Part shown: in pieces, positions 10,236 to 59,410 of the stretch
Numbering within the stretch: position 1 is the stretch's first letter
Layout of the letters: each line of letters begins with the position of its first letter
Origin: Candidatus Moraniibacteriota bacterium
Lineage (GTDB): Bacteria; Patescibacteriota; Minisyncoccia; Moranbacterales; UBA2206
Assembly: GCA_030645735.1 (NCBI GenBank)
Contig: JAUSNP010000003.1
Span: 167,411-231,410, forward strand
DNA: 64,000 bases
Direction: 5' to 3'
Notes under the pieces: model-generated
What the model was told of the DNA's origin: nothing
Database searches by the model: none
The model's input: only the letters and a program-made list of their open reading frames with translations
Made by a program: the position numbers and the translations under genes

Positions 10236-10455
10236 GGTTCGCCACTTTCTTTAGACATGTTCTTGCCCTTACTTTTTCTTTCCGCAAGAAAAAGTAACAA
10301 AAAGAACTCTCCGCCGGCTCGTACAAAAATAAATTTTCAACTTATTCGCGAAAAAATACTGGTTGCCCCGCGCCGGACCAGTATTTTTTAGCGCTCATAA
10401 GTTTCAATTTATAGTTTTGTACTACGCAAGGCGGAAGGGTTTTTAAAACAAAAAA
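10236..10455 (+). repeat. Modular intergenic repeat, copy A (diverged; carries an internal GC hairpin bidirectional terminator)
   Basis: Starts ggttcgccactttcttt like copy C. Shares ccggctcgt, ttattcgc, cgctcataa...aattta...acgccaagg with the other copies. Its reverse complement matches 59245..59410. Confidence 0.65.
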
Positions 10456-10469
10456 AACTAGAAAAACCA

Positions 10470-10645
10470 ATTCGCCCATAACGAAGTGCGTTTCTAAATT
10501 TCAGCGCATGAGCGTTAAGAAATTTTTTGCTACTCCTTTTAGCGGAAAGTCGTCCCTAAAATTTTAGCGAATAAGCTAGAAATTTAGACAGCACGAGTCT
10601 GGGCAGCAGTTTCTTTTCGTCCACTTTCTTTGCTGCCAAAGAAAA
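10470..10645 (-). repeat. Modular intergenic repeat, copy E (near-exact reverse complement of copy D at 58997..59200)
   Basis: gtgcgtttctaaatttcagcgca...ctttctttgctgccaaagaaaatggacac is the reverse complement of the 59 kb copy with few mismatches. Confidence 0.8.
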
Positions 10646-10677
10646 TGGACACTCTGTTCTTTGGTAAAAGAAGAATA

Positions 10678-11637
10678 TTAAATGATTTCCCATCCATCCT
10701 TAGTTTCTCGGATAGTGCCTTTGATTTCAAAGCCAGAAGCGAGTTTGTGACCACCACCACCAAATTGGGCGGCGATTTTGGAGACATCTACGCCTTTGTA
10801 TTCTTCAGAGCGCAGGCTGCCCTTGATGACGCCTTCTCCGCGTTCAGAGAGGATGAGGGCGAATTTGGTGCCTGGCACAGTGTTGAGGATGCCGGAAACT
10901 TGAGCAATGTCTTCGGAGCCTGCACCACATTCTTCCAAATCTTTTTGAGTCAGTACTGAAATGATCATGCCGTTAGTTGGATTGATCTTGGCTTTTTCAA
11001 AAGCTTTGCCCCAGAGTTTCAAAGTCGAAATATTTTTATTAGAAAAAGTTGATTCGACTATTTTAGCCAAAGGTGCTCCGCGTTTCATAAGTTGGGAAGC
11101 AATTTCCATGACTTTTGGCGTGGTGTTGGAATGTTGAAATGAACCAGTATCAGACATGATGCCGAGCAATAGAAAGGTTGCCATCTTGCGATTGATTTCA
11201 ACTTTATTGAAAATAAAAAAGTCATAGATAAGCTCACAAACAGAAGAATATTTAGCATCCAGAATGGTGATGTCAGCTTTGACAGTGATGTCTGGATGAT
11301 GATCAATGATAGCGGTGATTTGATTGTCGGCAACGGTATCAATGATTTTGTGAAAGCCACGCTCCACGCTGTCAGCGCCAATGATTAGATTATACTTTTT
11401 CAAATCAAGATTCTCTGGATTGATGAATTTTTCTTCAGAAAAAGAGCGCAAATATTCAGGGAAGGCGTCATAGCAAGTAATGTCAGCTTTTTTGCCAAGG
11501 GTGCGAGCATATTCTTTGAGCGCCAAGACGGAACCAGTTGTGTCTCCATCTGGTCTGGAATGCGCAAAAAGCAGAATCTGTTCAGATTCCTTGATAACAA
11601 AGTTGAGGGTATTAAATTCTTTGGAAAACTTAGCCAT
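10678..11637 (-). CDS. nrnA: DHH-family phosphoesterase NrnA (oligoribonuclease / pAp phosphatase)
   Basis: HSRPDGDTTGSVLAL...DHH...GGGGHKLASG motifs (DHH + DHHA1). Confidence 0.8.
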   Translation of the reverse strand: MAKFSKEFNTLNFVIKESEQILLFAHSRPDGDTTGSVLALKEYARTLGKKADITCYDAFPEYLRSFSEEKFINPENLDLKKYNLIIGADSVERGFHKIIDTVADNQITAIIDHHPDITVKADITILDAKYSSVCELIYDFFIFNKVEINRKMATFLLLGIMSDTGSFQHSNTTPKVMEIASQLMKRGAPLAKIVESTFSNKNISTLKLWGKAFEKAKINPTNGMIISVLTQKDLEECGAGSEDIAQVSGILNTVPGTKFALILSERGEGVIKGSLRSEEYKGVDVSKIAAQFGGGGHKLASGFEIKGTIRETKDGWEII

Positions 11638-11698
11638 AACTCTTTAATTTACAAAGCCATAATAAAATGCGACTCTTGTCGCATTTTAAGTTGTGTAT

Positions 11699-12028
11699 TT
11701 ATATTTCTCGCAGCAGCCTTTCGATTTCATCAGCTTTGGACTCAGTCCGGTCGGTGATGAATTGAATTTTTGGCAACGGGCGCATATGCAATTTTTTGTT
11801 GAGCGCGCCCTGGATGCGATAGAGTTCTTTCGTGAGAGTCTTTTGCGTATAGTCCATTTCCTTCTCAGGGAAGACACTCACGAATATACGAGTATAGCGA
11901 AGATCAGGCGTAGTGTCAACCTTGGCGATGGTGGCAAAAACACCCTCCTTTAGGGACAGATCTTTAAGGATTATTTCATTAACATGCTGTTTGATCAGCT
12001 CGTTGATTTTTTGAGTTCTTTCGGACAT
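11699..12028 (-). CDS. rbfA: Ribosome-binding factor A
   Basis: 109 aa; RbfA KH-like pattern ...TRIFVSV...; sits next to infB. Confidence 0.8.
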   Translation of the reverse strand: MSERTQKINELIKQHVNEIILKDLSLKEGVFATIAKVDTTPDLRYTRIFVSVFPEKEMDYTQKTLTKELYRIQGALNKKLHMRPLPKIQFITDRTESKADEIERLLREI

Positions 12029-12035
12029 AATATTG

Positions 12036-12235
12036 TTCTAACTTTTCTTTGGCAGCAAAGAAAAGTTACAAAAGAAACTGCCGACGCCGGCTCGTGCTGT
12101 CTAAATTTCTAGCTTACTCGCTAAAATTCCAATAAGTGTTAGAAAAGCTTTCTAGTATGTAATTTTTTAACGCTCGTGCGCTGAAATTTAGAAACGCACT
12201 TCGCAAGGCGCGGACATTTTTTTAAAATTATTAAA
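12036..12235 (+). repeat. Modular intergenic repeat, copy B
   Basis: taacttttctttggcagcaaagaaaagtta hairpin; ccggctcgtgctgtctaaatttctagcttactcgctaaaatt; ttttttaacgctcgtgcgctgaaatttagaaacgcac. Confidence 0.8.
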
Positions 12236-12236
12236 A

Positions 12237-14018
12237 TTACAGGGTTTTCTTTTTGACTTCCTCGGTGTAGCAGACGATGGTATCGCCTTCTTTGATTTTG
12301 GTTTCGCCGTCAAAGGTGATGCCACATTCGTTGTTCTTAGTTACTTCGTCTACATCAACTTTGTTTTGTTGCAAATTTATCAGCTTGCCTTTGCCGATGA
12401 TGGCATCGTTGCGCATAACTTCAATCAAGCAATTTTTGGCAATCTTGCCAGAAACAACTTTTCCACCAACGATCATATCTTTCTTGCCAGTTTTGAAAAG
12501 GGCCAAAACTGTCATCTTACCAAAATCAGTTCGCTCAATAGTTGGTGGTAGCATTTCAGTTAATCTATTTTTAATGTCAGACACTAATTCATAAATGATT
12601 TTGTAGTTTTTGACTTCAACCTTGCTAGACTCAGCCATTCTCTTAGCCACTGGAGTAGTTTCAATGTTGAAACCAAAGATAACTGCGTTAGCGCTTTGCG
12701 CTAGGCGTACATCAGACTCAGTAGTGTTCCCAACTCCGATACCAATATAGTTGACTGCTACTTCATCAGATTTGATTTCGCTTAGAATTTGTTGAATGGC
12801 TTCAAGTGAGCCTTGCACATCTGATTTGAGAATCACATTTAGTTTTTGAATTTTTTCATCACCGATAGCTTTGTAAATTTTTTGCGCATTGAGTTCGCCT
12901 GGTCGGCCAATTGGACCACTGTTACTAGCGCGAAGCGCTTCAGCGCGGGCAATGGACTTTCCGCTCACGACTTGCAAGATGTCGTTGGTGTTGGAAGTTG
13001 TATTGAGCCCAATCAAACTGATTGGAGTTGAAGGGCCAGCTTCGAGCAGTTTCTTGCCAGCAAAATCTTCAATTCTTCGTACGCGACCGTGAGCTGATCC
13101 AGCAATGATATCCTGACCTTCTTTGAGAGTTCCAGTTTTGATAAGAATTGTAGCTACTGGCCCTTTTTGTGGATCAAGATGTGATTCCAGAACAACACCC
13201 AAGGCATCTCTTTTTGCGTCAGATTTGAAATCTTCCACTTCAGCCACAAGCAAGATATTTTCCAAAAGATTATCAATCCCAATATTTTGTTTGGCGCTAA
13301 CTTCACAGCACAAAGTTTGCCCACCCCATTCTTCGACCATAATCCCATTCTCACCCAATTCTTGTTTAACTCTTTGGATATTCGCCTCAGGCTTATCAAC
13401 TTTATTGATAGCGACAATGGTTGGAATTTTTTTAGCTAGGAGATATTCAATAACTTCTTTAGTTTGCGGACGCACGCCGTCATCAGCAGCGACCACTAAA
13501 ACTGCAATGTCAGCGATAGAAACACCTCGTTCGCGCATAGCGCTAAAGGCTTCATGCCCCGGAGTGTCGACAAAAGTGATGAGTTGACCTTTGCGTTTGG
13601 CTTGGTAGGCGCTGATGTGCTGAGTGATGCCACCAGATTCTTTGGCAGCCACACTGGCTTTGCGGATTGTGTCGAGCAAGGTAGTTTTTCCGTGGTCAAC
13701 ATGTCCTAAAATAGTTACGATTGGAGGTCTAGACTGCAGATTTTCTCCAGCTTCATTTTCTTTCTTGAGCATTTCAATCATTTTTTCCAATGTCATTGAT
13801 TCATCAGCCACAATGATATCTTCCTGAACTTCAAAACCAAGATCCTGCGCAATGATGGAGGCAGTTTCAAAATCTATTTTCTCATTGATGGTGGCAAGGA
13901 TGCCATTTTTCATGAGTTCTGTAATAACTGTGCCTAGTGACAACTCTAAAAGTTCACTGAATTTTTTGACAGTGACAGTGGCTGGCAATTTGACAATTTT
14001 TTTGATATCTTCGGACAT
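12237..14018 (-). CDS. infB: Translation initiation factor IF-2
   Basis: GTP-binding G-domain VTILGHVDHGKTTLLD...DTPGHEAF...NKVDK and the IF-2 C-terminal domains. Start set at MSEDIKK (ORF track 14060 is a 14-aa extension). Confidence 0.93.
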   Translation of the reverse strand: MSEDIKKIVKLPATVTVKKFSELLELSLGTVITELMKNGILATINEKIDFETASIIAQDLGFEVQEDIIVADESMTLEKMIEMLKKENEAGENLQSRPPIVTILGHVDHGKTTLLDTIRKASVAAKESGGITQHISAYQAKRKGQLITFVDTPGHEAFSAMRERGVSIADIAVLVVAADDGVRPQTKEVIEYLLAKKIPTIVAINKVDKPEANIQRVKQELGENGIMVEEWGGQTLCCEVSAKQNIGIDNLLENILLVAEVEDFKSDAKRDALGVVLESHLDPQKGPVATILIKTGTLKEGQDIIAGSAHGRVRRIEDFAGKKLLEAGPSTPISLIGLNTTSNTNDILQVVSGKSIARAEALRASNSGPIGRPGELNAQKIYKAIGDEKIQKLNVILKSDVQGSLEAIQQILSEIKSDEVAVNYIGIGVGNTTESDVRLAQSANAVIFGFNIETTPVAKRMAESSKVEVKNYKIIYELVSDIKNRLTEMLPPTIERTDFGKMTVLALFKTGKKDMIVGGKVVSGKIAKNCLIEVMRNDAIIGKGKLINLQQNKVDVDEVTKNNECGITFDGETKIKEGDTIVCYTEEVKKKTL

Positions 14019-14114
14019 TTTTTTTAAATAATCAATAACCAAGAAACAAATAACAAACAATATTCAATTATCAAATTTCAATATACAAACTGTTGGTTAT
14101 TGGAATTTGAGATT

Positions 14115-14134
14115 CCTGCCTGCCAGCAGGCAGG
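14115..14134. repeat. GC-rich palindrome CCTGCCTGCCAGCAGGCAGG (copy 2), with flanking 10-bp direct repeat TTGGTTATTG at 14093-14102 and 14138-14147
   Basis: Read directly from the sequence. Confidence 0.8.
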
Positions 14135-14189
14135 TGTTTGGTTATTGTATCTTGTTTCTTGTATCTTGCGTAGTGATTATTTTTAAAAC

Positions 14190-14705
14190 TTATATTTTCT
14201 TAGTATCAGCCACTTTAGCCAGCTTGATGGCTTGCTTTTCCTCTTCAGTGAGGGGATATTTTTCTGATTCTCCGGCAGTTATGGCTTTGGCATAAACACG
14301 AGTTCCTTCGCGGGTATATAAGGAGGAGATGGTTAGGCCATTATTTTTGCCATTCAGCATAGCAATGGCAAAGCTTTGATCGCCACCCACATCTTTGAAT
14401 GGGTTATATCGAATTACGGCAACCTTGTGTAGTCCTTTGTAGGCCTGCATATTTATCTGATTGGAAATGTTGTATAGCTCCTGAATATCCTTGTCCAGAG
14501 CCTTAATCGACTTGGAATGACCAATAATAATGTCTTCAACATTTTTAACATTATTACCAGCAAAGAACTCAAGATTCTTTTTGTTGATCTTTCTGATGCT
14601 TATTTGAAGCAAAAAAATCCAAATAAGCATAGCAAGAATTATCATAAATAGGGTTATGATAATTATTGGCTCGTAATTACGCAATAAATTTAGGATAGGT
14701 TGCAT
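14190..14705 (-). CDS. Membrane-anchored hypothetical protein (DUF4446-like)
   Basis: N-terminal TM helix. C-terminal VIRYNPFKDVGGDQSFAIAMLNGKNNGLTISSLYTREGTRVYAK resembles the DUF4446 family. Confidence 0.5.
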   Translation of the reverse strand: MQPILNLLRNYEPIIIITLFMIILAMLIWIFLLQISIRKINKKNLEFFAGNNVKNVEDIIIGHSKSIKALDKDIQELYNISNQINMQAYKGLHKVAVIRYNPFKDVGGDQSFAIAMLNGKNNGLTISSLYTREGTRVYAKAITAGESEKYPLTEEEKQAIKLAKVADTKKI

Positions 14706-14804
14706 AAAAATGGCTTATTTGTATATTAAAGCTAGCATTTATAGGGCGTTATGTAAAGGTCGCCTACGTAAATCATCTGAATGATTTGCTTCAGCGAACT
14801 AAAG

Positions 14805-14891
14805 CGGAGAGTACAGGAGTTGAACCTGTGAGGAGATTGCTCCCCAACCGCATTTCGAGTGCGGCGCGTTAGACCACTCTGCCAACTCTCC
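14805..14891 (-). tRNA. tRNA-Ser (anticodon CGA), long variable arm
   Basis: Reverse complement ggagagt-tg-gcagagtggtctaacgc...cTCGAaa...tggggagcaatctcctc...acagg-ttcaact-cctgt-actctcc-G. Confidence 0.85.
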
Positions 14892-14918
14892 GTATTTTTT
14901 TAGTGACAACTTAGTGCC

Positions 14919-14938
14919 CCTGCCTGCCGGCAGGCAGG
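14919..14938. repeat. GC-rich palindrome CCTGCCTGCCGGCAGGCAGG (copy 3)
   Basis: Identical to copy 1; lies immediately adjacent to the tRNA-Ser gene. Confidence 0.85.
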
Positions 14939-15078
14939 TTCAACCAACTCGGCCACTCTTCCATATCACAGGTTGTTTATTAAAGTTACCTTATTTTGTG
15001 AATGTTATCAACAGCAACCAAGATTATTCTGGTTGTTGAAATGTTATTTTTGTTGTAGAATAAAATTAATAAAATAAT

Positions 15079-15663
15079 ATGTCTTCGGAAAATATGACCA
15101 ATGAAATTGAGTCTAGCAAAGTTCAGTCTTTCACGGTTAAGTTTATTAATCCGGAAGCGGTGATTGAAAAAATTGATATACCCAATGGAAGTGTGGTAGC
15201 TGATTTTGGTTGTGGCAGTGGTTATTTTTCTTTGCCAATTGCGAAAAAAATTGGCGAGCAGGGCGTAGTGTATTCTTTAGATATTCTTCCGCAGAGTCTC
15301 GAGACTGTGGCTAGCCAAGCCAAGACTGCTGGGCTCACTAATATTGTAACTAAGCGAGTCAACTTGGAAAAAGCTGGGGGATCACGATTGCCAGATGCAA
15401 GCTGCGATTGGGTGATTATGAAAGATATGCTTTTTCAGAATACAAATAAAAAAGTTATATTAGAAGAAGGCAGGAGGGTTCTCAAGGATGGAGGCAGAAT
15501 TCTGTTGATTGAATGGAATCTAGAGGATGCTTCAATTGGGCCAAACAAAAGTTTGCGAATTTCCAAGGAGGCTTTGACTGAACTGATTCAACAAACCAAT
15601 TTGAGTGTTTTGCAAGAAGTCCCCGTTAGCAATTTTCATTATGGCCTGATATTGGTTAAATAA
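15079..15663 (+). CDS. Class I SAM-dependent methyltransferase
   Basis: VADFGCGSGYFSLPIAK motif I, followed by the downstream methyltransferase fold. Confidence 0.7.
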   Translation: MSSENMTNEIESSKVQSFTVKFINPEAVIEKIDIPNGSVVADFGCGSGYFSLPIAKKIGEQGVVYSLDILPQSLETVASQAKTAGLTNIVTKRVNLEKAGGSRLPDASCDWVIMKDMLFQNTNKKVILEEGRRVLKDGGRILLIEWNLEDASIGPNKSLRISKEALTELIQQTNLSVLQEVPVSNFHYGLILVK

Positions 15664-15706
15664 AATATTTTGCGGAGGCTTAGTTTAGATTAAAAATAAA
15701 AAAAAG

Positions 15707-17119: not shown

Positions 17120-17146
17120 GTTTGTTTAAATTAAATTTGTATAAAA

Positions 17147-18421
17147 ATGAAAATTAAATTAGTCATAGGTTTATTCTTGTTGTCGATATTTTTGTTGGTT
17201 CCAACAATTAGTCTGGCTGTTGATGGGGATTATGGCAGTGTTAATTTGGCGCCAGCCAACAATGCTGCTGGCGGACTGGTGCCATGTGGAAATGGTGGCG
17301 TGGAAACTGCTTGTACGCTGTGTCACTTCGTGATTGGTTTTCAAAATCTGGTGAATTTTATGCTGAAGCTGGTGATTACGATGGGGTTTGTGGGGATTTT
17401 TGCGGCGGGTGTGATGTATATCATTTCGGCGGGTGATGACAAAATGATGGGCAGCGCCAAGAGCGCCTTGACTGCTAGTCTAATTGGATTTGGTATCGTG
17501 ATGGGGGCATGGCTGATTGTGAATGTGACCATCTGGGCTCTGGGCGCCAACATTGGTGTGGCCACAGGACAAAATTGGTATGATTTTAATTGTTCGACAA
17601 GAAGTTCGACAGTTCCAAATTCAGCACCGGTGGTGACAGCAGAAAATTGTTGTGTTGTTGGACCTGGTCGTTGCTCTCATGTGAAAGATTCTAGTGAATG
17701 TTCATCTGGAACATATAAAACTGGATCCTGTGCAGACATAGCAGATTGTCTAAATGGCGGTACAGAATGTGGAATAGGTGGAATTGGACAATGTAAATCG
17801 GGCGTACTTCCGGGAACTTGTCCAGATGGTTGGAGTGCTACGATGGGAAATCTTTCCAACCCGTGTGTCAGTGGTACAAAATGCTGTGCAAAAAATGGTG
17901 AGGCCCCTGAAACATGTGCAGGTGGTTCTGGAAAGTGTTTTTATGGTTCACTTGTTTGTCCATTAGGATATGGTAATAGTCTTGGATTATGTTCAGCGTC
18001 AACATCCGCCTGTTGTGCAAAGAATGGTGAATCAACTGAAGTCTGTGCAGGTGGTGCAGGTAAATGTTTCAACGGCACAAGTGTTTGTCCGACAGGGTAT
18101 ACTAGTAATGTTGGTACTTGTTCAACAGCACAGTCCGTATGTTGCACATCTCCCGCAACTGTTGCCCCTGGAATTGTATGTGGCATAAATAGTTTAGGAG
18201 AATGTAAGGCCGGAATTTGTCCAGATAACTATAGTGTGATATTGGGGAGTCCAACTAACCCTTGTCCAAATGGAACAAATTGTTGCGCGAAGAGTGGTGA
18301 ATCAACTGAGACTTGTGCTGGTGGTGCAGGTAAATGTTTTTATGGCACTAGCTCATGTCCTCCTAATCGCACACGTACTGTTGGTATATGTTCGGCGTTG
18401 CAATCGGCTTGTTGTAAATAA
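17147..18421 (+). CDS. T4SS-pilin-like (VirB2/TrbC-like) secreted membrane protein with 4 C-terminal Cys-rich ~45-aa tandem repeats
   Basis: Signal peptide; LVPCGNGG...CTLCHFVIGFQNLVNFMLKLVITMGFVGIFAAGVMYIISAGDDKMMGSAKSALTASLIGFGIV; then 4x CCAKNGE..E.CAGG.GKCF.G...CP.GY.....CS....CC. Confidence 0.65.
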   Translation: MKIKLVIGLFLLSIFLLVPTISLAVDGDYGSVNLAPANNAAGGLVPCGNGGVETACTLCHFVIGFQNLVNFMLKLVITMGFVGIFAAGVMYIISAGDDKMMGSAKSALTASLIGFGIVMGAWLIVNVTIWALGANIGVATGQNWYDFNCSTRSSTVPNSAPVVTAENCCVVGPGRCSHVKDSSECSSGTYKTGSCADIADCLNGGTECGIGGIGQCKSGVLPGTCPDGWSATMGNLSNPCVSGTKCCAKNGEAPETCAGGSGKCFYGSLVCPLGYGNSLGLCSASTSACCAKNGESTEVCAGGAGKCFNGTSVCPTGYTSNVGTCSTAQSVCCTSPATVAPGIVCGINSLGECKAGICPDNYSVILGSPTNPCPNGTNCCAKSGESTETCAGGAGKCFYGTSSCPPNRTRTVGICSALQSACCK

Positions 18422-18435
18422 TTTTAAATAAAAAA

Positions 18436-19392: not shown

Positions 19393-19755
19393 ATGAAAAA
19401 TAAAATTAAAGCATTAGCTTCTGCTTCAGCATTGACGATGATGGCTTTGCCAGCTTTGGTTTCTGCAGCGCCAGCATTTCAAGCGCCTGCTGGAACCGGT
19501 TTGCCAGAAGGATCAATCACCGGAATCATCACTAACATTATGAACTGGCTTTTGATGCTAGTTGGAATCATCGGTGTGATTGGTTTCGCAATCTCTGGTA
19601 TTCTATATATGACAGCGGCTGGAGATGAAGGACGAATTGAACAAGCCAAATCTGCCATGATGTATTCCATTATTGGAGTTATCGTAGCAATTATTGGAGT
19701 TGTTGTTATCAAAGCGGCTCAAGGATTGTTGGGTGGATCAAACTCATCATTCTAA
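19393..19755 (+). CDS. Pilin-like VirB2/TrbC-like small secreted membrane protein
   Basis: Signal peptide ...ALVSAAPA; GIITNIMNWLLMLVGIIGVIGFAISGILYMTAAGDEGRIEQAKSAMMYSIIGVIVAIIGVVVIKA. Confidence 0.6.
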   Translation: MKNKIKALASASALTMMALPALVSAAPAFQAPAGTGLPEGSITGIITNIMNWLLMLVGIIGVIGFAISGILYMTAAGDEGRIEQAKSAMMYSIIGVIVAIIGVVVIKAAQGLLGGSNSSF

Positions 19756-19882
19756 CCGACATTTCTATACTAAAAAACGACCTGTGGATAACTGGTCGTT
19801 TTTTAATTTTTTAGACTAGAATTTTTTTTGAAAAGTGGTATAATATAAATAGTAAAATAAATTTTTAAATAAACAAAAAACA

Positions 19883-20332
19883 ATGATTAAAAAAATAAAA
19901 GTAGCGTTGTTGTTGGTGGCAGTATATTTTGTGGTGTCTCCCGTGAGTGCGTCTGCATATTCTTGCTTCCCAATCCCGCTCCCTGGTTGCACAACTCCTG
20001 GTTTGCCCGGCGTAGATTTCGGTGGTTCTGGTGGTGGAATAAATGGTGGATGGTCGACAGGCAATGTTTCTGGCTATGGCCTGCCAGAAGGCTCAATCAC
20101 AGGTATCATTGAAAACATTTTAGTGTGGCTGTTGATGATGTTTGGAATCATCGGCATAATTGGGTTTGTAATCTCAGGACTCATGTATGTTTTAGCAGCT
20201 GGTGATGAAAAAACGATTGAGAAAGCTAAATCAGCTATGAAAAATTCAGCCATCGGTGTGATTGTTGGAATTTCCGGTTTTGTGATTATCAAAGCAGTCG
20301 ACACCATTCTCAACGCTTATAGCGGAGTTTAA
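19883..20332 (+). CDS. Pilin-like VirB2/TrbC-like small secreted membrane protein
   Basis: Very similar to the 19393 product: GIIENILVWLLMMFGIIGIIGFVISGLMYVLAAGDEKTIEKAKSAMKNSAIGVIVGISGFVIIKA. Confidence 0.6.
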   Translation: MIKKIKVALLLVAVYFVVSPVSASAYSCFPIPLPGCTTPGLPGVDFGGSGGGINGGWSTGNVSGYGLPEGSITGIIENILVWLLMMFGIIGIIGFVISGLMYVLAAGDEKTIEKAKSAMKNSAIGVIVGISGFVIIKAVDTILNAYSGV

Positions 20333-31358: not shown

Positions 31359-31560
31359 GGTTCGCCACTTTCTTTGGCAGCAAAGAACGTGGCAGAAAGA
31401 AACTGCCACACCGGCTTGTGCTGTCTAAATTCTCAGATTATTCGCTAAAATTCCAATAAGTGTTAGAAAGGCTCTCTAGTATGTAATTTTTTAACGCTCA
31501 TAATCTGGAATTTAGAAACGCACTAACGCCAAGGTGTGGATTTTTTTTAAAATTAAACAA
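31359..31560 (+). repeat. Modular intergenic repeat, copy C
   Basis: ggttcgccactttctttggcagcaaagaacgtggc...ccggcttgtgctgtctaaattctcag...aacgctcataatctggaatttagaaacgcac; shows compensatory changes relative to copies B and D. Confidence 0.8.
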
Positions 31561-48635: not shown

Positions 48636-48639
48636 AAAA

Positions 48640-48750
48640 GTCTAAAGTCTAAAGTTTAAAGACTAAACAAAGTTAAAAGTCTAAAGTCTAAATTTGTGAA
48701 TTTCAAATCACAACTTAGTCTTTAGTAATTAGTCTTTAGACTTTAATATG
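48640..48750. promoter_or_regulatory. Iteron-like array: >=4 direct and >=3 inverted copies of GTCTAAAG around a central near-palindrome TTGTGAATTTCAAATCACAA
   Basis: aagtctaaagtctaaagtttaaagactaaa...agtctaaagtctaaatttgtgaatttcaaatcacaacttagtctttagtaattagtctttagacttt. Confidence 0.55.
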
Positions 48751-48751
48751 T

Positions 48752-49744
48752 ATGGTAGGTTTCACTAAAAAAAGTGTGCGCACATTGACGCTGGGGGAGA
48801 AACTCAGCAATCTTCGCAGTGAAAGAAGAATCAGTTTGAATGAGGTTTCACGCAGTACCAAGATTCAATTGAAATATTTGGAATATCTGGAAGCTGGGGA
48901 TTATAAAAAATTGCCAGTGGATGTGTATGTCAAAGGCTTTTTGCGTAGTTATGCCGAATTCCTCGGTGTGGATGAAAACATTCTGATTAGACTCTATGAA
49001 AAAGAAAAAGGCATCAAGAAAAATTTGGAAAAAGCCAATGGCGACACTGACAGTAAAAAAGAGGCTATTAATATGTCACCATTTTTGATTACACCTAAAA
49101 TCATTGCGGTGGTTTTTGGAATTCTGTTTGCTTTCGGACCATTGATTTATTTATATCGAGAAATTGGCGCTTTTGCTAACACGCCTAAGTTAGTTATTTT
49201 GAGTCCAGTGCAAAATGAAATTGAAAATAGCAACTCAGTTTTGGTCACAGGTGTTTCTGACAAAGATGCTAGAATTTTTATCAATGACCAACCAATTTTG
49301 ATTTCAGACGAAGGCCGGTTTAGCGAGAGCTTGGCCTTGCAAGCTGGTACAAATTCAATTTCAGTGAAAGCTGTGAATCGCTTTGACAAAGAAACTATTG
49401 AGAATATTATTGTGCAATCTAATTATGAAGAAAAGGAGCAGAACACAACCAATGAAGAAATTAGCAATGATGTATCAGGAGCGAAACAAGATAAAATCAG
49501 CATGGAGCTGAGTGTCAATCCTGGTCCAGTTTGGGTGAGTGTGGAAGCGGATGGTAATTTAGTTTTCAGTGGTACCATGCTTATGGGCGCCATTCAATCT
49601 TTCTCAGCTTCCGAAAAAATTAGTATTAGTGCAGACAAAGCTAATGCAACCCTAGTTAAATTCAATGGCAAGGATATCGGCGCATTAGGCACGAAGCCTG
49701 AAGCTATCAAGAATGTTATTTTTACTAAGGACACTTCATATTAA
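48752..49744 (+). CDS. RodZ-like protein (XRE-type HTH + TM + C-terminal DUF4115-like domain)
   Basis: LGEKLSNLRSERRISLNEVSRSTKIQLKYLEYLEAGDYKKLPVDVYVKGFLRSYAEFLGVD is the RodZ HTH pattern, followed by a TM helix. Confidence 0.65.
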   Translation: MVGFTKKSVRTLTLGEKLSNLRSERRISLNEVSRSTKIQLKYLEYLEAGDYKKLPVDVYVKGFLRSYAEFLGVDENILIRLYEKEKGIKKNLEKANGDTDSKKEAINMSPFLITPKIIAVVFGILFAFGPLIYLYREIGAFANTPKLVILSPVQNEIENSNSVLVTGVSDKDARIFINDQPILISDEGRFSESLALQAGTNSISVKAVNRFDKETIENIIVQSNYEEKEQNTTNEEISNDVSGAKQDKISMELSVNPGPVWVSVEADGNLVFSGTMLMGAIQSFSASEKISISADKANATLVKFNGKDIGALGTKPEAIKNVIFTKDTSY

Positions 49745-49805
49745 CACGTTAGCAGATTAGCACGTCAGCACCGTGTTAACGTGTTAAAATGCTAACGTGT
49801 TAACG
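49735..49805. promoter_or_regulatory. Motif array TAACACGTTA / TAACGTGTTA including a 14-bp inverted repeat (TTAACACGTTAGCA ... TGCTAACGTGTTAA) upstream of recA
   Basis: At least four ACGTG-centred boxes within 70 bp; a DnaA-box-like TTATCCACA follows at 49818. Confidence 0.45.
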
Positions 49806-51330: not shown

Positions 51331-51345
51331 TTTGTGATTTGTGTT

Positions 51346-51443: not shown

Positions 51444-51446
51444 AGG

Positions 51447-52004: not shown

Positions 52005-52005
52005 A

Positions 52006-52087
52006 GGCATGAAACATGAAACATATAACATGTAACAATTTTTTAGAAAGTTGCTACATGTTTCATGCTGTATGTTATATGATTTAT
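52006..52087. repeat. Duplicated leader/promoter element, copy 1 (immediately 5' of efp start codon)
   Basis: gcatgaaacat(gaaacat)ataacatgtaacaattttttagaaagttgctacatgtttcatgctgtatgttatatgat; 72 bp identical to 52343..52417. Confidence 0.8.
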
Positions 52088-52348
52088 TTATTTGACTACG
52101 AAAGGAACCAAGGCCATCACGCGAGCTTTCTTGATAGCAGAAGCCAAAGCGCGTTGGTGCTTGGCGCAAGTTCCATGTCTCTTTGGAGGATAGATCTTGC
52201 CTTGAGAGTTGGTAAATCTTTTGATCAAGTAGACATCCTTGAAGTCAATTTGATCCATTTTGATATCACAGAAATGACAGATTTTCTTTTCTGTCTTCGT
52301 GCTATCGTTATTGTTGTTATTGTATATTTTCACTAGTTTATGAAGCAT
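52088..52348 (-). CDS. rpsR: 30S ribosomal protein S18
   Basis: KKICHFCD...DFKDVYLIKRFTNSQGKIYPPKRHGTCAKHQRALASAIKKARVMALVP. The ORF-track TTG start at 52369 was replaced by the ATG at 52348. Confidence 0.85.
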   Translation of the reverse strand: MLHKLVKIYNNNNNDSTKTEKKICHFCDIKMDQIDFKDVYLIKRFTNSQGKIYPPKRHGTCAKHQRALASAIKKARVMALVPFVVK

Positions 52349-52417
52349 GAAACATATAACATGTAACAATTTTTTAGAAAGTTGCTACATGTTTCATGCT
52401 GTATGTTACATGATATT
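52343..52417. repeat. Duplicated leader/promoter element, copy 2 (fills the ssb-rpsR intergenic region, begins at rpsR start codon)
   Basis: Identical 72-bp core to 52006..52087. Confidence 0.8.
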
Positions 52418-52898: not shown

Positions 52899-52989
52899 TT
52901 ATTTTTATGGTAACTAGTAACTCGTAACTTGTGACTAGAAATATTTTTTCAAAAACTAGTGACTGATTACGGATGACTGATTACTAAAA

Positions 52990-53833: not shown

Positions 53834-54457
53834 ATGGCTAAGAATAAAAATGTTTCGTTGTTAGTCAGCGCAGCGGGCTGGATTGCTGGATTGGTAGAAT
53901 TTCTCGTCAGAGCCTTGCGTGAGCGAGGAGTCACAGATGATGAGATTCATGCCCTCGTCACGGAAAAAGGCGAAGCATTGATGGCCAAGATTGCTGATGT
54001 AATCGCTGAGTTTGTGAAGGCGACGAAAAAAATCGTCTACACAATCACCGTGGATTATGCGACAAGTGTGGATGAGCTGGTAAAACTTGGAAAGTATGAT
54101 TGGGCAAATGATAATATTACCCAAAAAAACTTTCCAACTACGCGCACTGGCAAGGCGGATATTGAGATTGAACTCATCCACTTTGACCGTAGCATTTCCA
54201 GTGAGAAGGCACTTGAGGAAATGGACAGGATGGGTTATCGAGCAGCTGAAGTTCACGAGTTGTTGGCTTTCGGTGTAAAATACCCAGATGTCCAGCGTGA
54301 ATTTCCGGTCGTGGCTCTAGGCTCGGTTTGGCAGGACCCCGATGGCCTTCGCGATGTTGCGTGTCTCCGTCGCGATGCTTCGGATCGCTTCCTCAGCCTC
54401 CGTGCTTTCGGCCGTGACTGGACTGGCGCCTGCCGTTTCGCGGCCGTTCGCAAGTAG
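53834..54457 (+). CDS. DGR target protein (variable repeat at C-terminus; GSVWQ motif reminiscent of C-type-lectin/FGE-fold DGR targets)
   Basis: The 3' ~135 bp are homologous to the template repeat at 54801-54934, with substitutions only at template adenines. Higher GC than the surroundings. Confidence 0.75.
   Translation: MAKNKNVSLLVSAAGWIAGLVEFLVRALRERGVTDDEIHALVTEKGEALMAKIADVIAEFVKATKKIVYTITVDYATSVDELVKLGKYDWANDNITQKNFPTTRTGKADIEIELIHFDRSISSEKALEEMDRMGYRAAEVHELLAFGVKYPDVQREFPVVALGSVWQDPDGLRDVACLRRDASDRFLSLRAFGRDWTGACRFAAVRK
54318..54451 (+). repeat. DGR variable repeat (VR)
   Basis: Aligns to TR over ~134 bp. About 23 mismatches, all at positions where TR has A. The 3' 20 bp GC-rich block tgccgtttcgcggccgttcg is identical (IMH-like). 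Confidence 0.85.
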
Positions 54458-54483
54458 TCTGCCGATAGGCGGACAGCCCCTTG

Positions 54484-54530
54484 GGACCTTGGATTTCTTA
54501 TAACTTTTGAAATCCTTGGTCCCTTTTTGT
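54484..54530 (+). other. 15-bp-stem hairpin immediately downstream of VR (gggaccttggatttc-ttataactttt-gaaatccttggtccc) + T-run
   Basis: Two central mismatches. DGR-associated hairpin/cruciform position, also terminator-like. Confidence 0.6.
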
Positions 54531-54800
54531 TTTTTTCAAAAATTTTTAATTTTTGAAAAAGGTGATAAAATTAAAAAAGATAGTAGACTCAAAATAAGTT
54601 TTTGGTTAAGACTGAAAACGGTCAAATTCTGGAATTATTAAATAGAGAATAGTGCTGGGTATGCTTAGTGCTAGAGTTGTTTTATAGTTTCTAAAAAATA
54701 AAGATACTTGGTGCAAGATATTATGGAATTAAAAGATTCCGGATTAGATTCAATCTCAAAAGAATTTTAGAGATGGTGGTGCGGGAGATATTTTGCACAA

Positions 54801-54934
54801 TAGGCTCGGTTTGGCAGAACCCCGATGACAATCGCAATGTTGCGTATCTCAATCGCAATGATTCGAATCGCAACCTCAACCTCAATGATTTCGACAATGA
54901 CTGGAATGACACCTGCCGTTTCGCGGCCGTTCGA
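54801..54934 (+). repeat. DGR template repeat (TR), adenine-rich AAY codons
   Basis: taggctcggtttggcagaaccccgatgacaatcgcaatgttgcgtatctcaatcgcaatgattcgaatcgcaacctcaacctcaatgatttcgacaatgactggaatgacacctgccgtttcgcggccgttcg. Confidence 0.85.
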
Positions 54935-54970
54935 AACTCTCTTTATTTCCCGCCTCTTTTTTGGCGGGTT

Positions 54971-55267
54971 TTATTTTATTAATTGTTTTTGCCAGCCACC
55001 AAGCATTTTGCCGATTTCTTCTAGATGTTCAGAAAGAATAAGATATTTTTTGTTGTCTATCGATTTGATTTCCCAAGACATTTGAAGAAAAAATTTGAGA
55101 AGATCTAGTTTGGCATTGGCTTTTTGAACAAATGGAACTTTCTGTTCTTTGTTTAGTCGACTGGCTATGAAAATGTATTCAGTTGTTTCAATGAATAGGT
55201 TATCAATTTTTATTCCTAATGTGTAACGAGATGTTTTTGAAAAATGTGGCAAAAAATCATGCCACAA
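54971..55267 (-). CDS. avd: Avd-like accessory variability determinant (four-helix-bundle / 23S rRNA IVS protein family)
   Basis: ...KLDLLKFFLQMSWEIKSIDNKKYLILSEHLEEIGKMLGGWQKQLIK matches the C-terminal pattern of the four-helix-bundle family commonly encoded with DGR reverse transcriptases. Confidence 0.7.
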   Translation of the reverse strand: MWHDFLPHFSKTSRYTLGIKIDNLFIETTEYIFIASRLNKEQKVPFVQKANAKLDLLKFFLQMSWEIKSIDNKKYLILSEHLEEIGKMLGGWQKQLIK

Positions 55268-55350
55268 CTTGTATGTCGTAAGTAATTTTTGAATTAAAGA
55301 TATATTTGTCCGGGGGGGGGGGTCTTAAAAGTAGAAGAATTATTGAAATT

Positions 55351-56331
55351 ATGAAGATTCAACTGACTCATACATTTGCAGATATTATTTGTTTAGAAAA
55401 CTTGTTAGAAGCTTGGAAAGAATTTGTCAGAGGCAAAAGAAATAAAAAAGATGTCCAAGAATTTTCTTTGCATCTGATGGACAACATCTTTGCGCTTCAC
55501 CACGACTTAGTTAATCATACCTACAAACACGGTGGTTATCAAGCTTTCAAAATAAATGACCCCAAACCCAGAGACATTCACAAAGCCACGGTAGGTGACC
55601 GACTTTTGCATCATGCAATTTATCGAAAACTCTATCCATTTTTTGACAAGACTTTCATTGCTGATTCATATTCCTGCCGGATCAACAAAGGCACGCACAA
55701 GGCTATCAAAAAATTTAAAGCTTATTCTTTAATAGTAAGTAAAAACAACACCACAACTTGCTGGATTCTCAAATGCGACATCCGCAAATTCTTTGCCAAC
55801 ATTGACCACACAATTCTGATCAAAATTCTAGCTGAATATATTCCAGACAAAAACATTCTCGAACTGCTGGAAAATATTATTGAAAGCTTTGCAACTAAGC
55901 CTAATGTTGGCCTGCCACTTGGCAATCTCACTAGTCAATTGCTAGTTAATATTTATATGAACAAGTTTGATCAATTTGTGAAACATCAAATGAAAGCCAA
56001 ATACTATATCCGCTATGCTGATGACTTTGTGTTTTTAGCAGAAAGTAAAAGTGAACTAGAAGAAAAACTTTCAATTGTTGAAAAATTCTTAGCTACTAAG
56101 CTGAAACTAGAGATGCACCCAGACAAAGTTTTTATCAAAACGCTGGCAAGTGGTGTGGATTTTTTAGGTTGGGTAAATTTCTCAGATCATCGAGTCTTGC
56201 GAACAGCGACTAAAAAGAGAATGATGCGAAGAATTGAAGAAAATTCAAAAGAGGAGGTGATAAATTCGTATTTGGGTATGCTAAGACACGGGAATGGGAG
56301 AAAATTAATAACGAAGATTTCTAGATTTTGA
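55351..56331 (+). CDS. DGR reverse transcriptase (ORF-track start 55306 is inside a G10 tract; start set at MKIQL)
   Basis: RT motifs incl. RYADDFVFL (YADD box) and GLPLGNLTSQLLVNIYMN (LGxxxSQ, the DGR-type variant of the QGxxxSP motif of group II/retron RTs). Confidence 0.8.
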   Translation: MKIQLTHTFADIICLENLLEAWKEFVRGKRNKKDVQEFSLHLMDNIFALHHDLVNHTYKHGGYQAFKINDPKPRDIHKATVGDRLLHHAIYRKLYPFFDKTFIADSYSCRINKGTHKAIKKFKAYSLIVSKNNTTTCWILKCDIRKFFANIDHTILIKILAEYIPDKNILELLENIIESFATKPNVGLPLGNLTSQLLVNIYMNKFDQFVKHQMKAKYYIRYADDFVFLAESKSELEEKLSIVEKFLATKLKLEMHPDKVFIKTLASGVDFLGWVNFSDHRVLRTATKKRMMRRIEENSKEEVINSYLGMLRHGNGRKLITKISRF

Positions 56332-57367
56332 ATTCTACTACATCTCCATCTTGCATAATATAATCCTTGCCTTCAGTGCGCAGAGTGCCGAGTTCACGGG
56401 CTTTGCTCCAGCTTCCGGCTTCGAGAAGCTTGTCCCATTGAATGATTTCGGCGCGAATGAATTTGTCTTTGAAATCATTGTGAATGGCGGTGCCAGCCAT
56501 GGGCGCGGACCAACCCTTTTGAATGGTCCAAGCGCGAGTTTCTTCCACGCCGGTGGTCAAATAGGTGATGAGTCCCAGCAGGGAATAGGCGGTCACAATC
56601 AGTTCATCAATGTTGGAAGTGACGCCAAGTTCTTGCGCCTCTTCTTTAGTCATCTCAATCAATTCTTCCTCAATCTTGATGTCCAGTTTCACGTGGTTTC
56701 TTTTTTCCAAATTGTCAGACAATTTTTGGTTGATGTCGGCCACATTGTAGATATACAAGAATGGCTTCATGGTCAACAATGACATTTCTCGCACAATGAT
56801 TTTGGTGCTTTCATCTTCCATGTTCAGTTCAGTTTCATTGGCTAGTTTGCCCGCTTCCAAATTGGCATTGATTTTGTTGAGGATTTCCAATTGTTCAGCG
56901 GCGCCTTTTTTGTTGCCCCGCACATCTTTTTCTAAACGGATTTTGGTTTTTTGCACAGTTTCTAGATCAGCCAAAATGAGTTCTGTGTTGATGATTTCAA
57001 TGTCACTTTCTGGATCAATTTTGTTGTTGACATGAATGATTTGCGAATTGTCGAAAACCCGCACCACTTGGGCGATGGCATCCACTTCACGAATGTTGGC
57101 CAAGAATTTGTTGCCCAAACCTTCGCCCTCAGAAGCCCCTTTGACGATGCCAGCAATGTCCACAAATTCCACAATAGCTGGAATGATCTTCTTGGTTTGG
57201 CTCATAGCTGACAATTTGTCCAAACGCTCATCCGGCACTTTCACAATGCCAATGTTGGGTTCAATGGTGCAAAAGGGATAGTTGTTGATATCTACTTGAG
57301 TGCGGGTCAAAGCCTTGAAAAGGGTTGATTTTCCAACGTTTGGGAGGCCGACGATTCCAATTTTCAT
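56321..57367 (-). CDS. ychF: Redox-regulated ATPase YchF
   Basis: [21 protein letters not shown]... G-domain with a TGS C-terminal domain. Confidence 0.92.
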
Positions 57368-57556
57368 TTTTTCTACAAATTACGAATTAGTTGTGAATGT
57401 ACGAATTCTATACTAATATCTAGAAAGAATCAATGTTTTTGAAATTTAATCATTTGGATTTGATTTGACATTTGAAATTTTAAATTGGAAATTGGAGGGC
57501 ATAATATGGTATTATGGATATGTAAATTAATACAATTAACTGGTTAAATAAAAACT

Positions 57557-58915
57557 ATGAAAGAGTCCATTTTTAAGGCCTATGACATTCGGGGGATTTA
57601 TCCGAGTGAAATCAATGAATTGGATGTGTATAAAATTGCCACAGCGTTTTGTGAATTTGTGAAACCAAGTGAGGTGGTGATTGGAGCGGATGTGCGCCTG
57701 TCTTCACCATCTTTGAAAAAAGTGGCCATCAAGGCTGTGACAGATGCAGGCATTCGGGTGATTGATGTGGGAGAAATTTCGACTGATATGCTATATTTCT
57801 CGGTGGCGCACTATGGTTATGCGAGTGGTTTTTCCTTAACGGCGTCACATAATCCGAAAGAATACAATGGAATGAAGTGCGTGCGTGAGGAATCGATTCC
57901 CATCTCATCCGATAGTGGTCTATTCGAAATTCGCGATAGAGCCTTTGCCATGGAACTGAGCGAAGATGTTTTGCAAGGTGAAATCAACGAATCCTTGGTT
58001 GAGAAAAAAGATATTCTGGAAGACTATGCAGTCAAGATGCGATCGTTTGCGGACTTTTCTAAATTCAAGAATTTCAAAATTGCCGCTAATCCAAATTTTG
58101 GTGTGGCTGGACGCGCGCTGACAAAGGTTTTGGAAGGGACTCAGATTTCTGTAGAAAAATTGAACTATGAACCAGATGGCAATTTTCCCAAGGGTCGTCC
58201 AGATCCATTGATTCCAGAAAACCGTGATGAGCTTTCCAAATTGGTTGTGTCCACTGGCTCAGACTTTGGCGTGGCGTGGGATGCTGATGCGGATCGATGT
58301 TTTTTCTTCACCGAAAAAGGCGAATTTATTGAGGGTTATTTCATCACAGCTCTTTTGGCGAAAATATTTTTGCAAAGACAATCTGGGCAAAAGATTATTC
58401 ATGATACGCGCTTGACTTGGGCAATTGAGGATATCGTGAAAGAAAATGGTGGTGTGGATATTGCCACTAAGGCTGGGCATTCATTCATCAAGGAAAGAAT
58501 GCGCAAGGAAGATGCGGTGTTTGGTGGTGAGATGAGCGCTCATTATTATTTCCGCGACTACTGGTTCTGTGATAATGGCATGGTGCCGTTGGTGATGATG
58601 ATGGAATTTTTGTCGACTCAGGAAAAGACTTTGTCAGAGATTATGCATGAGATGTTTTGGCAGAAATATTTTGTCAGTGGTGAAATCAACACGCCAGTGG
58701 CGGATGTGAAAGCTGTTATTGAAAATGCCAAGCGAATTTATTCAGATGGCGCTGTGAAGATTGATGAGACTGATGGTATCTCAATTGATCATGCTGATTG
58801 GCGGTTCAATTTTCGTGGATCAAATACCGAGCCACTTATTCGCTTGAATGTTGAAGCGAAATCGCAATCGTTGATGGAGGAAAAGACCAAAGAAATGCTA
58901 GCGCTGGCTAAATAG
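57557..58915 (+). CDS. Phosphomannomutase/phosphoglucomutase (alpha-D-phosphohexomutase)
   Basis: Active-site loop TASHNPKEYNGMK; GVAWDADADR metal-binding loop. Confidence 0.88.
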   Translation: MKESIFKAYDIRGIYPSEINELDVYKIATAFCEFVKPSEVVIGADVRLSSPSLKKVAIKAVTDAGIRVIDVGEISTDMLYFSVAHYGYASGFSLTASHNPKEYNGMKCVREESIPISSDSGLFEIRDRAFAMELSEDVLQGEINESLVEKKDILEDYAVKMRSFADFSKFKNFKIAANPNFGVAGRALTKVLEGTQISVEKLNYEPDGNFPKGRPDPLIPENRDELSKLVVSTGSDFGVAWDADADRCFFFTEKGEFIEGYFITALLAKIFLQRQSGQKIIHDTRLTWAIEDIVKENGGVDIATKAGHSFIKERMRKEDAVFGGEMSAHYYFRDYWFCDNGMVPLVMMMEFLSTQEKTLSEIMHEMFWQKYFVSGEINTPVADVKAVIENAKRIYSDGAVKIDETDGISIDHADWRFNFRGSNTEPLIRLNVEAKSQSLMEEKTKEMLALAK

Positions 58916-58935
58916 TCTATCTAGTCTATATTCAA

Positions 58936-58966
58936 AAAACTCATCCGAAAGGGTGAGTTTTTACTT
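58936..58966 (+). terminator. Rho-independent terminator
   Basis: aaaaaactcatccgaaagggtgagttttt. Confidence 0.7.
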
Positions 58967-58996
58967 ACACGTCATTTTTATTTTATAAAAATTACA

Positions 58997-59200
58997 GAGT
59001 GTCCATTTTCTTTGGCAGCAAAGAAAGTGGACGAAAAGAAACTGCTGCCCAGACTCGTGCTGTCTAAATTTCTAGCTTATTCGCTAAAATTTTAGGGACG
59101 ACTTTCCGCTAAAAGGAGTAGCGAAAAATTTCTTAACGCTCGTGCGCTGAAATTTAGAAACGCACTTCGTTATGGGCGAATCGGATTTTTAAAATTTTTA
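58997..59200 (+). repeat. Modular intergenic repeat, copy D
   Basis: gtccattttctttggcagcaaagaaagtggac hairpin; ...ctcgtgctgtctaaatttctagcttattcgctaaaatt...aacgctcgtgcgctgaaatttagaaacgcac. Its reverse complement is copy E at 10470..10645. Confidence 0.8.
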
Positions 59201-59244
59201 ACTTTTATTTTTTGTTTAAAAACCATCACGCACTCGCGGAATAC

Positions 59245-59410
59245 CAAGATACAAATTGAAACTTACGAGCACTAAAAAATGCTGGTCCGGCGCGGGGCAA
59301 CCAGCATTTTTTTGCGAGAAAGTTGAAAATTTGTCTTGGTATGTAGCTGTGCGGCCTTTTTCTTTTTTGCCACTTTTCTTTTGGGAAAAGAAAAATGGCG
59401 AACAGTTTTA
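59245..59410 (-). repeat. Modular intergenic repeat, copy F (reverse complement of copy A; contains bidirectional GC hairpin terminator aaaaaatgctggtccggcgcggggcaaccagcattttttt)
   Basis: Matches the reverse complement of 10236..10400 at about 85-90% identity. Confidence 0.7.

Follow-up and report, generated by a model that had tools for sequence, protein, structure and literature searches.

Six copies of a repeat of about 190 nt lie between the genes of a 64-kb window from a Candidatus Moraniibacteriota genome (contig JAUSNP010000003.1; by the window, we mean the whole stretch of 64,000 nt that we analyzed). The six copies, which we will call A to F, belong to an undescribed family of interspersed palindromic repeats that is specific to Candidatus Moranbacteria, a lineage of the Patescibacteria or Candidate Phyla Radiation (CPR). 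Each copy contains two hairpins whose pairing is maintained by compensatory changes, and copies usually occur as tail-to-tail pairs of two different subtypes. We propose, with a probability of roughly one half, that these are a new family of non-autonomous palindromic repeats, akin to miniature inverted-repeat transposable elements (MITEs), REPINs, or Correia elements, and that they also affect transcription termination.

A reading of this DNA from its sequence alone (the sequence-only reading) had reported six intergenic modules in the window, and three kinds of search confirmed them. With a profile built from the six copies, nhmmer matched exactly six stretches of the window in full (E = 2e-45 to 3e-59); the remaining matches were hairpin echoes. 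A covariance model, run across the whole window with filters off, found the same number of copies and otherwise just opposite-strand echoes of the hairpins. And a 24-nt degenerate core pattern had six matches in the window, versus 0.00 expected from shuffles. Together, the copies account for about 1.8% of this window of core genes.

The window contains two tail-to-tail pairs (A/E and D/F) and two single copies (B and C). Copy A (10265–10444, + strand, subtype II; 75 bits and E = 3e-16 with covariance model R1) comprises a 5' hairpin at 10269–10298, an A-rich linker, a long hairpin that is nearly perfect and has a GC-rich tip, and a T-run. Its tail-to-tail partner is copy E (10462–10653, – strand, subtype I; 185.5 bits with the covariance model), which starts 25 nt past the stop codon of a DHH-family gene; an AP-endonuclease-family gene flanks the pair on the other side. 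Copy B (12035–12223, + strand, subtype I; 204 bits; 5' hairpin at 12039–12068) fills the spacer between infB and rbfA, leaving 14 nt and 7 nt to the two genes, and is antisense to the operon. Copy C (31360–31549, + strand, subtype I; 195 bits) sits between the terminator hairpin of the HU gene and the terminator of a convergent tRNA-Gly/Pro unit. Copy D (58998–59189, + strand, subtype I; 181 bits), which forms an inverted repeat with E, is downstream of the terminator of a phosphoglucosamine-mutase-type gene (glmM). Its tail-to-tail partner, copy F (59218–59403, – strand, subtype II; 56 bits, E = 1e-11), is downstream of the terminator of trpS, so that the D/F pair is flanked by glmM and trpS. 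Copies A and F are 76.9% identical.

Copy A had been thought to begin at 10236. We find instead that its own hairpin begins at 10269 and that 10237–10253 (+ strand) is the relic of another, broken copy. This relic (GGTTCGCCACTTTCTTT), directly upstream of A, is the left half of a 5' hairpin and is identical to the first 17 nt of copy C. The same half hairpin also precedes the orthologous copy at locus L039 (at about 3856–3872). A stranded half hairpin of subtype I, in two genomes, has the appearance of a copy that was broken in the hairpin loop; from the sequence, it looks as if either the insertion of the next copy or recombination with the next copy broke it. On the same side of A, between it and the start of the AP-endonuclease-family gene, there is an extended –10-like box (TGCTAGAAT; 10205–10213, – strand), as would be expected if this gene were transcribed from a promoter of its own, downstream of the A/E pair.

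The unit of the family is a 5' hairpin followed by an A-rich linker (AAAAGAAA, found in every copy examined) and by an interrupted long hairpin of about 60 bp. The 5' hairpin has about 13 bp, with a pyrimidine-rich 5' strand (TTTTCTTT) and a purine-rich 3' strand. Its outer 4–5 bp vary among copies and yet remain complementary. As the sequence-only reading had noticed, the distal stems of A to E are compensated: TAAC/GTTA in B, GCCAC/GTGGC in C, GTCCA/TGGAC in D and E, and TTACTTTTT/AAAAAGTAA in A. The long hairpin is GC-rich at its base and has small internal loops, conserved around GCTC and TTCGCAAGG, as well as a conserved helix, AAATT/AATTT. In an asymmetric loop, GCTAAAWTT lies opposite AATTTYTTAACGC. 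The apex is a mini-hairpin, of which the family has a limited number of interchangeable versions. A T-run directly follows the basal stem in each of the six window copies; this 3' T-run is absent from the CATAG-type copies of other genomes. Several sequence boxes are kept in all subtypes, and the most conserved boxes of the family are TTAACGC and AATTTA.

When about 50 copies were folded individually, a two-hairpin architecture was common to all of them. The long-range pairing between conserved blocks that had been proposed for the window copies is predicted for each copy folded singly, and the fold of copy B has a z-score of –4.3. Copy C had also been thought to carry a 1-nt deletion on both sides of this helix, but its arms are as long as those of B. 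Rather, C differs from B by a compensatory substitution (U-A to C-G) that lies beside a change from C-G to a U-G wobble (alignment columns 75/154 and 76/153).

The pairing is strongly supported by covariation. To quantify it, we used alignments that were fitted to the covariance model, which favors pairing, so these numbers should be read next to their controls. Standard pairs made up 93.8% of the cells for copies from genomes and 90.7% for copies from metagenomes, as compared to 75.6% and 65.9% if the columns were shuffled, or 38–53% and 39–53% if the 3' partners were slid. Of the 47 consensus pairs, 36 (genomes) and 42 (metagenomes) changed on both sides, with 498 and 660 compensated cells, versus 168 and 198 in the shuffles. 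A plain MAFFT alignment also covaries (for instance, one pair of columns has AU:14 UG:12 CG:5 GC:2 UA:1). Because covariation is seen in both the model-fitted and the plain alignments, we conclude that the hairpins are real and maintained. Since the 5' hairpins of different subtypes do not align in register, MAFFT with RNAalifold, applied to all of the subtypes together, found just the inner helices; building the covariance model from subtype I solved this problem. The earlier suggestion of selection on the stems, via compensatory changes, is supported in about 100 copies from other genomes.

What is being maintained does not seem to be a single RNA. RNAs that act from one strand normally have a large excess of G-U over A-C at their paired positions. 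In the consensus pairs of this family, the counts of G-U and A-C were 64 versus 37 in genomes and 50 versus 61 in metagenomes, or 114 versus 98 in total. Nor do the folding energies settle on a strand: 40 of 50 copies have a slightly more stable fold on the reverse strand, but 4 of the 6 window copies have theirs on the forward strand. Taken together, wobble pairs and folding energies gave no consistent winner. We also found no conserved promoter upstream of the 5' hairpin, as the alignment falls apart immediately outside the hairpin. We conclude that what is constrained is not one RNA but a hairpin, which both strands are able to form (in single-stranded DNA, in a cruciform, or in transcripts from both strands). 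The sequence-only reading had offered a structured RNA family as one alternative, which these results do not favor; furthermore, copies C, D, and F come only after the terminators of the adjacent genes. A structured non-coding RNA that acts from one strand is a poor fit: the covariation is strong but comes without a G-U excess, single copies occur in both orientations relative to the surrounding genes (16 sense and 9 antisense), and the pairs hold both orientations.

The family extends well beyond the window. A scan of genomes, with one genome per species, found 54 loci, most of them from genome bins of Candidatus Moranbacteria or Moraniibacteriota, with up to eight loci per bin. At these loci, nhmmer found 57 copies, and the covariance model gave 70 matches, of which 49 were full length. 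A scan of metagenomes with a second pattern found at least 120 stretches, and the covariance model confirmed 62 copies among the 80 loci listed. Searching outside the window with a covariance model, which had been suggested as a check, thus yielded more than 100 additional copies from Moranbacteria genomes and metagenomes. There was no true copy in a phage database or in viral contigs. In these data, the closest relative of the window is LBXA01 (Moranbacteria GW2011_GWA2_39_41), with 84–91% nucleotide identity in the syntenic genes.

The family also appears to be new, as had been suspected. Across the whole window, Rfam (release 15) reported only 10 tRNAs at the gathering threshold. With permissive settings (E ≤ 10 for 10150–12300 and E ≤ 1 for the pair at locus L035), the best score was 22 bits, versus cut-offs of 48–128 bits. 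A search of the literature found nothing comparable to this repeat family.

Where two copies are adjacent, their arrangement follows a strict rule: all 20 pairs are tail-to-tail, and none are head-to-head or in tandem. The tail-to-tail pair of about 420 bp, which joins two different subtypes, is the commonest higher-order unit. In the 18 complete pairs that we measured, the partners are just 53–69% identical to each other, whereas each partner has relatives elsewhere that are 71–99% identical to it. Given the strict orientation, and partners that are dissimilar and have closer relatives elsewhere, the heterotypic pair must be a unit in itself. A/E and D/F are two ordinary examples of it, and not a special local arrangement.

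Orthologous sites differ in whether they hold copies. At locus L033, the site of the A/E pair is empty, whereas the more distant L039 has the pair. Conversely, copy B is present in four genomes (the window, L033, L065, and L115; the L033 ortholog is 94% identical) and is absent from the L039 site. The spacer between the homologs of the window genes at 8806–9336 and 8092–8679 is empty in the window and is filled by a pair in two other genomes (L046, L003, and L045). Some copies at different sites are nearly identical: D and E are 97.9% identical, and the copies at L032 and L040 are 99.5% identical. E is just 81.9% identical to its positional ortholog at L039, so the similarity of D and E indicates recent copying or gene conversion. 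Presence or absence at orthologous sites, together with near-identical paralogous copies, is what a mobile repeat would show.

High-identity, multi-copy repeats break short-read assemblies, and at least seven GenBank contigs do end within a copy (at L003, L018, L029, L031, L032, L045, and L053). Two short Logan contigs from the window's own sample (L001 and L177) also end within copies. Looking up exact protein matches, as a way to find strain variants, led to nothing but short Logan contigs, all of them from one sample and ending in the repeats. The distribution of the copies, their presence or absence at orthologous sites, and the assembly breaks all fit the other alternative in the sequence-only reading, namely an interspersed repeat like BOX, RUP, or ERIC.

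The copies also have a preferred niche. We compared the 49 units for which both flanking genes are known to background intergenic spacers. Convergent flanks are more common for the units (35% versus 14%), and co-directional flanks (61% versus 74%) and divergent flanks (4% versus 12%) are less common. Of the single copies between co-directional genes, 16 are in the sense orientation and 9 are antisense; the 5' hairpin often begins 2–25 nt past a stop codon. Of 24 single copies, 18 match the sign of the local skew, and the singles of the window (B and C) are both on the G-rich strand, although this is confounded by the strand of the genes.

We propose that the repeat is a non-autonomous DNA element that would move, or would be spread by conversion between copies. 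Its hairpins would be the structure that is recognized by an enzyme supplied in trans, as in the REPINs with their REP-associated tyrosine transposases (RAYTs) or in Correia elements. Copies would then persist where they do little harm, which is downstream of genes and above all between convergent genes. A predicted side effect is on termination. Each copy resembles an oversized, bidirectional intrinsic terminator because the long hairpin is bracketed by an A-tract and, in this genome, by a T-tract, and the genome's ordinary terminators likewise consist of an A-tract, a hairpin, and a T-tract. Every copy has a U-rich tract behind the long hairpin when the reverse strand is read, and all six window copies have one on the forward strand too. 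(A simple terminator scanner flags just the basal stems of B and C.) Such a terminator-like effect could explain why the reverse orientation is rarer inside operons and why pairs are tolerated between convergent genes, and it may explain why resident copies are conserved.

Several results weigh against our proposal. No transposase was found beside the copies: we clustered all open reading frames (ORFs) within 2.5 kb of the copies, and no protein family recurs beside them except for syntenic housekeeping genes. Similarly, a tblastn search of the 1.27 Mb of fetched loci, with an IS608 TnpA query, found no homolog adjoining any copy; the one weak match (L133) is on an unrelated contig that lacks a match to the covariance model. 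We also looked for an autonomous version, with inverted copies enclosing a gene, and the sole case (L095) encloses a 115-amino-acid, membrane-like ORF and no transposase. The flanks of 12 pairs, and of single copies, give no consistent signal of terminal inverted repeats or of a target-site duplication. (The ends of the element are blurred because the flanks often hold further small A/T hairpins.) Among the sequences compared, there was no clean pair of filled and empty alleles at high identity. And resident copies evolve slowly: orthologs of B are 94.2% identical, as compared to 74.5% identity at the third codon positions of the flanking genes, and orthologs of E are 78.5% identical, as compared to 54–56%. 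The changes between orthologous copies cluster in the apical module. This slow evolution, along with the boxes that are conserved across subtypes, would point to a host-level or protein-binding function and not to pure selfish decay, although gene conversion among the copies could mimic part of it. Finally, the unit of about 190 nt is larger than the published size range of such repeats, which is about 20–130 bp (PMC3116915).

Among known systems, the family is closest in kind to REPIN/BIME, Correia, and ERIC/BOX repeats, and it differs from each of them in the features that define membership. Repetitive extragenic palindromic sequences (REPs), bacterial interspersed mosaic elements (BIMEs), and REPINs are extragenic and palindromic, reach high copy number, have compensated stems, and evolve as inverted doublets, which fold into hairpins in single-stranded DNA or in mRNA (PMC3116915). 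The Moranbacteria repeat likewise has a long hairpin of inverted boxes, is extragenic, multi-copy, and compensated, and forms inverted doublets; and a 20-nt GC palindrome in the same genomes behaves as a classical REP. However, the unit of about 190 nt and the pair of about 420 nt are much longer than REPs (20–60 nt) or REPINs (about 100 nt). The unit also has a separate 5' hairpin and the A-rich linker, and the partners in a pair are different subtypes. Furthermore, no RAYT gene (Y1 HUH) was found near any copy in the 1.27 Mb of fetched loci.

The Correia elements of Neisseria (CREE or NEMIS) are intergenic hairpin repeats that make up about 2% of a small genome, with no known transposase. 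They contain internal promoter-like and terminator-like features and are present or absent at orthologous sites. The Moranbacteria repeat shares these traits: it is an intergenic hairpin repeat with terminator-like and promoter-like features, and it varies in presence at orthologous sites. But Correia elements are 100–155 bp long, with terminal inverted repeats of 26 bp and with duplication of a TA target; we see neither feature here, and there is no sequence similarity. ERIC (or IRU) sequences are imperfect palindromes in transcribed intergenic DNA, and BOX elements are modular with exchangeable middle modules, both of which are reminiscent of this family. However, ERIC, BOX, and RUP differ from it in size, sequence, and host phylum, and neither Rfam nor the literature search gave a match for the Moranbacteria repeat. 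BOX modules are in tandem, not in a nested hairpin, and RUP has IS630-like ends with a TA duplication. As in the palindrome-associated elements (PATEs) that derive from IS200/IS605, hairpins are the likely recognition structure, there is no target duplication, and there may be a leading-strand bias of the single copies. Unlike the left-end and right-end hairpins of IS200/IS605, which bind one TnpA, the 5' hairpin and the 3' structure are dissimilar here. No conserved target tetranucleotide could be established, no TnpA or TnpB was found near the copies in the fetched loci, and the pairs put half of the copies on the opposite strand. We rejected a MITE in the strict sense, as there is no consistent duplication, there are no short terminal repeats, and no copy or pair encloses a transposase gene.

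Some of these features would also suit repeats that the host keeps as cis-acting transcript elements at the ends of genes (oversized intrinsic terminators or insulators, or RNase III or stability hairpins) and that spread by duplication and recombination, without transposition. The A-tract that always precedes the long hairpin (which gives a U-tract on the reverse transcript) and the T-run that also follows it in the window match the design of this genome's ordinary terminators. The excess of sense over antisense singles, the position of the 5' hairpin just past stop codons, the better conservation of orthologous copies than of third codon positions, and the retention of copy B in the infB-rbfA spacer of four genomes lean the same way. 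We consider this explanation unlikely, if worth taking seriously. Little transcript is expected at C, D, and F, which lie beyond bona fide terminators, and G-U and A-C occur in a ratio of about 1:1. A terminator requires no separate 5' hairpin, conserved boxes, or heterotypic pairing, and the CATAG-type copies of other genomes lack the 3' T-run. Also, assembly-breaking copies of high identity, which are present or absent at orthologous sites, would not be expected of fixed regulatory sites. We also considered that the pair might be the locus of a small RNA. This RNA, of about 200 nt and antisense to one partner, would be driven by a promoter in the 3' arm of the other, and its 3' end would be the U-tract from the reverse complement of the A-rich linker. 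In other Moranbacteria, the second partner (Y) does have a promoter-like, sigma-70-like sequence, TTAACG-16-TATAAT (10/12), at a fixed place in its 3' arm, and this is directed into the antisense of the first partner (X), as at L035 (2830–2803, – strand) and L006 (4556–4529, – strand). That TTAACGC and AATTTA are the family's most conserved boxes, that 40 of 50 copies fold slightly better as the reverse strand, and that pairs are invariably tail-to-tail are consistent with this as well. However, the window versions are degenerate (TTAGCG-16-TATAGT in A and TTAGTG-16-TGTATC in F), and a promoter scan reports none there. A –10 with its final T is missing from X-type copies and from those of subtype I, singles have no partner, the wobble pairs show no strand bias, and no promoter is conserved upstream of the 5' hairpin, all of which make a small-RNA locus improbable. 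A related idea, which we find doubtful, is that a tail-to-tail pair of two subtypes is a functional module, complete in itself and peculiar to Moranbacteria, and not decaying selfish DNA. In favor of this idea, boxes are conserved across subtypes, resident copies evolve more slowly than synonymous sites, the pair rule is strict, and no known transposase was found. One possibility is that the module is a promoter-plus-terminator cassette, with one partner firing a structured antisense RNA of about 200 nt across the other. This antisense RNA, or else the cruciform-prone DNA of the module, would be bound via the conserved boxes by a lineage-specific protein, perhaps for copying the element; such copying might proceed through a hairpin intermediate, by an enzyme class that has not yet been linked to such repeats.

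Multi-copy intergenic loci of about 400 bp, with convergent halves and strong long-range pairing, bring to mind the type I toxin-antitoxin repeat loci of E. coli, such as LDR and QUAD/Sib, in which there is a small toxin ORF and a convergent antisense RNA. The probability of this is close to negligible, as no ATG-initiated ORF of at least 20 amino acids is present in the sense orientation of 88 of 102 copies, or in the antisense orientation of 87 of 102. The few remaining ORFs are not conserved in position or sequence, and the indels in the alignment of the copies are not multiples of three. The sequence-only reading had also noticed that the A/E and D/F composites are inverted repeats of each other and suggested that they could mediate inversion of the intervening 48 kb or so. 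The inverted repeats are real: 10444–10662 and 58989–59207 are 94% complementary over 219 nt, and 10322–10466 and 59197–59341 are 79% complementary over 145 nt. The longest identical stretch is 129 bp (10529–10657, inverted relative to D at about 59.0–59.1 kb), which is a possible substrate for homologous recombination or a possible trace of recent gene conversion. With a perfect run of this length, RecA-type recombination would be feasible, so the inversion is mechanistically possible, but nothing indicates that it has occurred. All but one of the 2-kb bins have a positive GC skew, within the segment as well as beyond it, and the skew is positive across both junctions. Furthermore, the adjacencies at the junctions, AP endonuclease with DHH and glmM with trpS, are ancestral, as they are conserved in relatives. 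That the two composites are the arms of an invertible segment, or a recombination switch, is highly unlikely for other reasons as well. Genes of rpoB/rpoC size and other core genes are on the leading strand, so inversion would set them head-on to replication, and similar pairs are found at many unrelated sites in other genomes.

The host lends interest to this repeat: CPR bacteria have genomes of about 1 Mb, which tend to be portrayed as streamlined and short of mobile DNA. Yet this repeat has a large, rule-bound architecture in a minimal-genome host. It recurs across many species of Moranbacteria and fragments short-read assemblies, which makes it a practical reason why genome bins of this lineage are broken. 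As a natural data set of compensatory evolution, it provides over 100 copies, and 42 of 47 pairs covary. It raises the questions of what copies a double-hairpin unit of 190 nt in genomes with no transposase seen nearby, and why tail-to-tail pairs always join two subtypes. The covariance model can be used to annotate copies, and if they act as terminators or insulators, then they are relevant to the annotation of operons in Moranbacteria.

The 20-nt GC-rich palindrome mentioned above (CCTGCCTGCCGGCAGGCAGG) is a second, REP-like repeat. It occurs in the window at 6401–6426, 14112–14137, 14916–14941, and 63641–63666, as well as at L052, L049, L023, L051, L007, and L054, and in other genomes it can be nested within copies of the 190-nt element. 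It invariably lies between A and GAA, without a duplication, which suggests that it could be a site-specific hairpin insertion. A third small GC hairpin, of about 45 nt (CCGTCTCGACTCGTGGAGAC...CCGAGGCGGA), is found inside the 5' arm of the long hairpin at L017 (7212–7495) and L012 (2657–2926).

Other intergenic spacers consist of short repeated words, either palindromic or direct (AAAGTCTAAAG, TTAACACGTTAGC, ATGAAACATGAAACATATAACATGTAAC, and GTTCTAA/TTAGAAC). In the window, these are at 48637–48744, at 49741–49803, at 52009–52083 with 52340–52414, and at 1601–1646 with 2073–2118; there is another at L033 (3610–3713). Among these spacers, a small minus-strand gene is bracketed on both sides by one 75-nt repeat (97% identical). 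Finally, two coding regions of the window (17147–18421 and 19393–20332) have internal direct repeats of 80–214 nt with 70–80% identity, and they include a cysteine-rich repeat (TGTTGTGC...TGTGCAGGTGG...TGTCC) that occurs at least three times.

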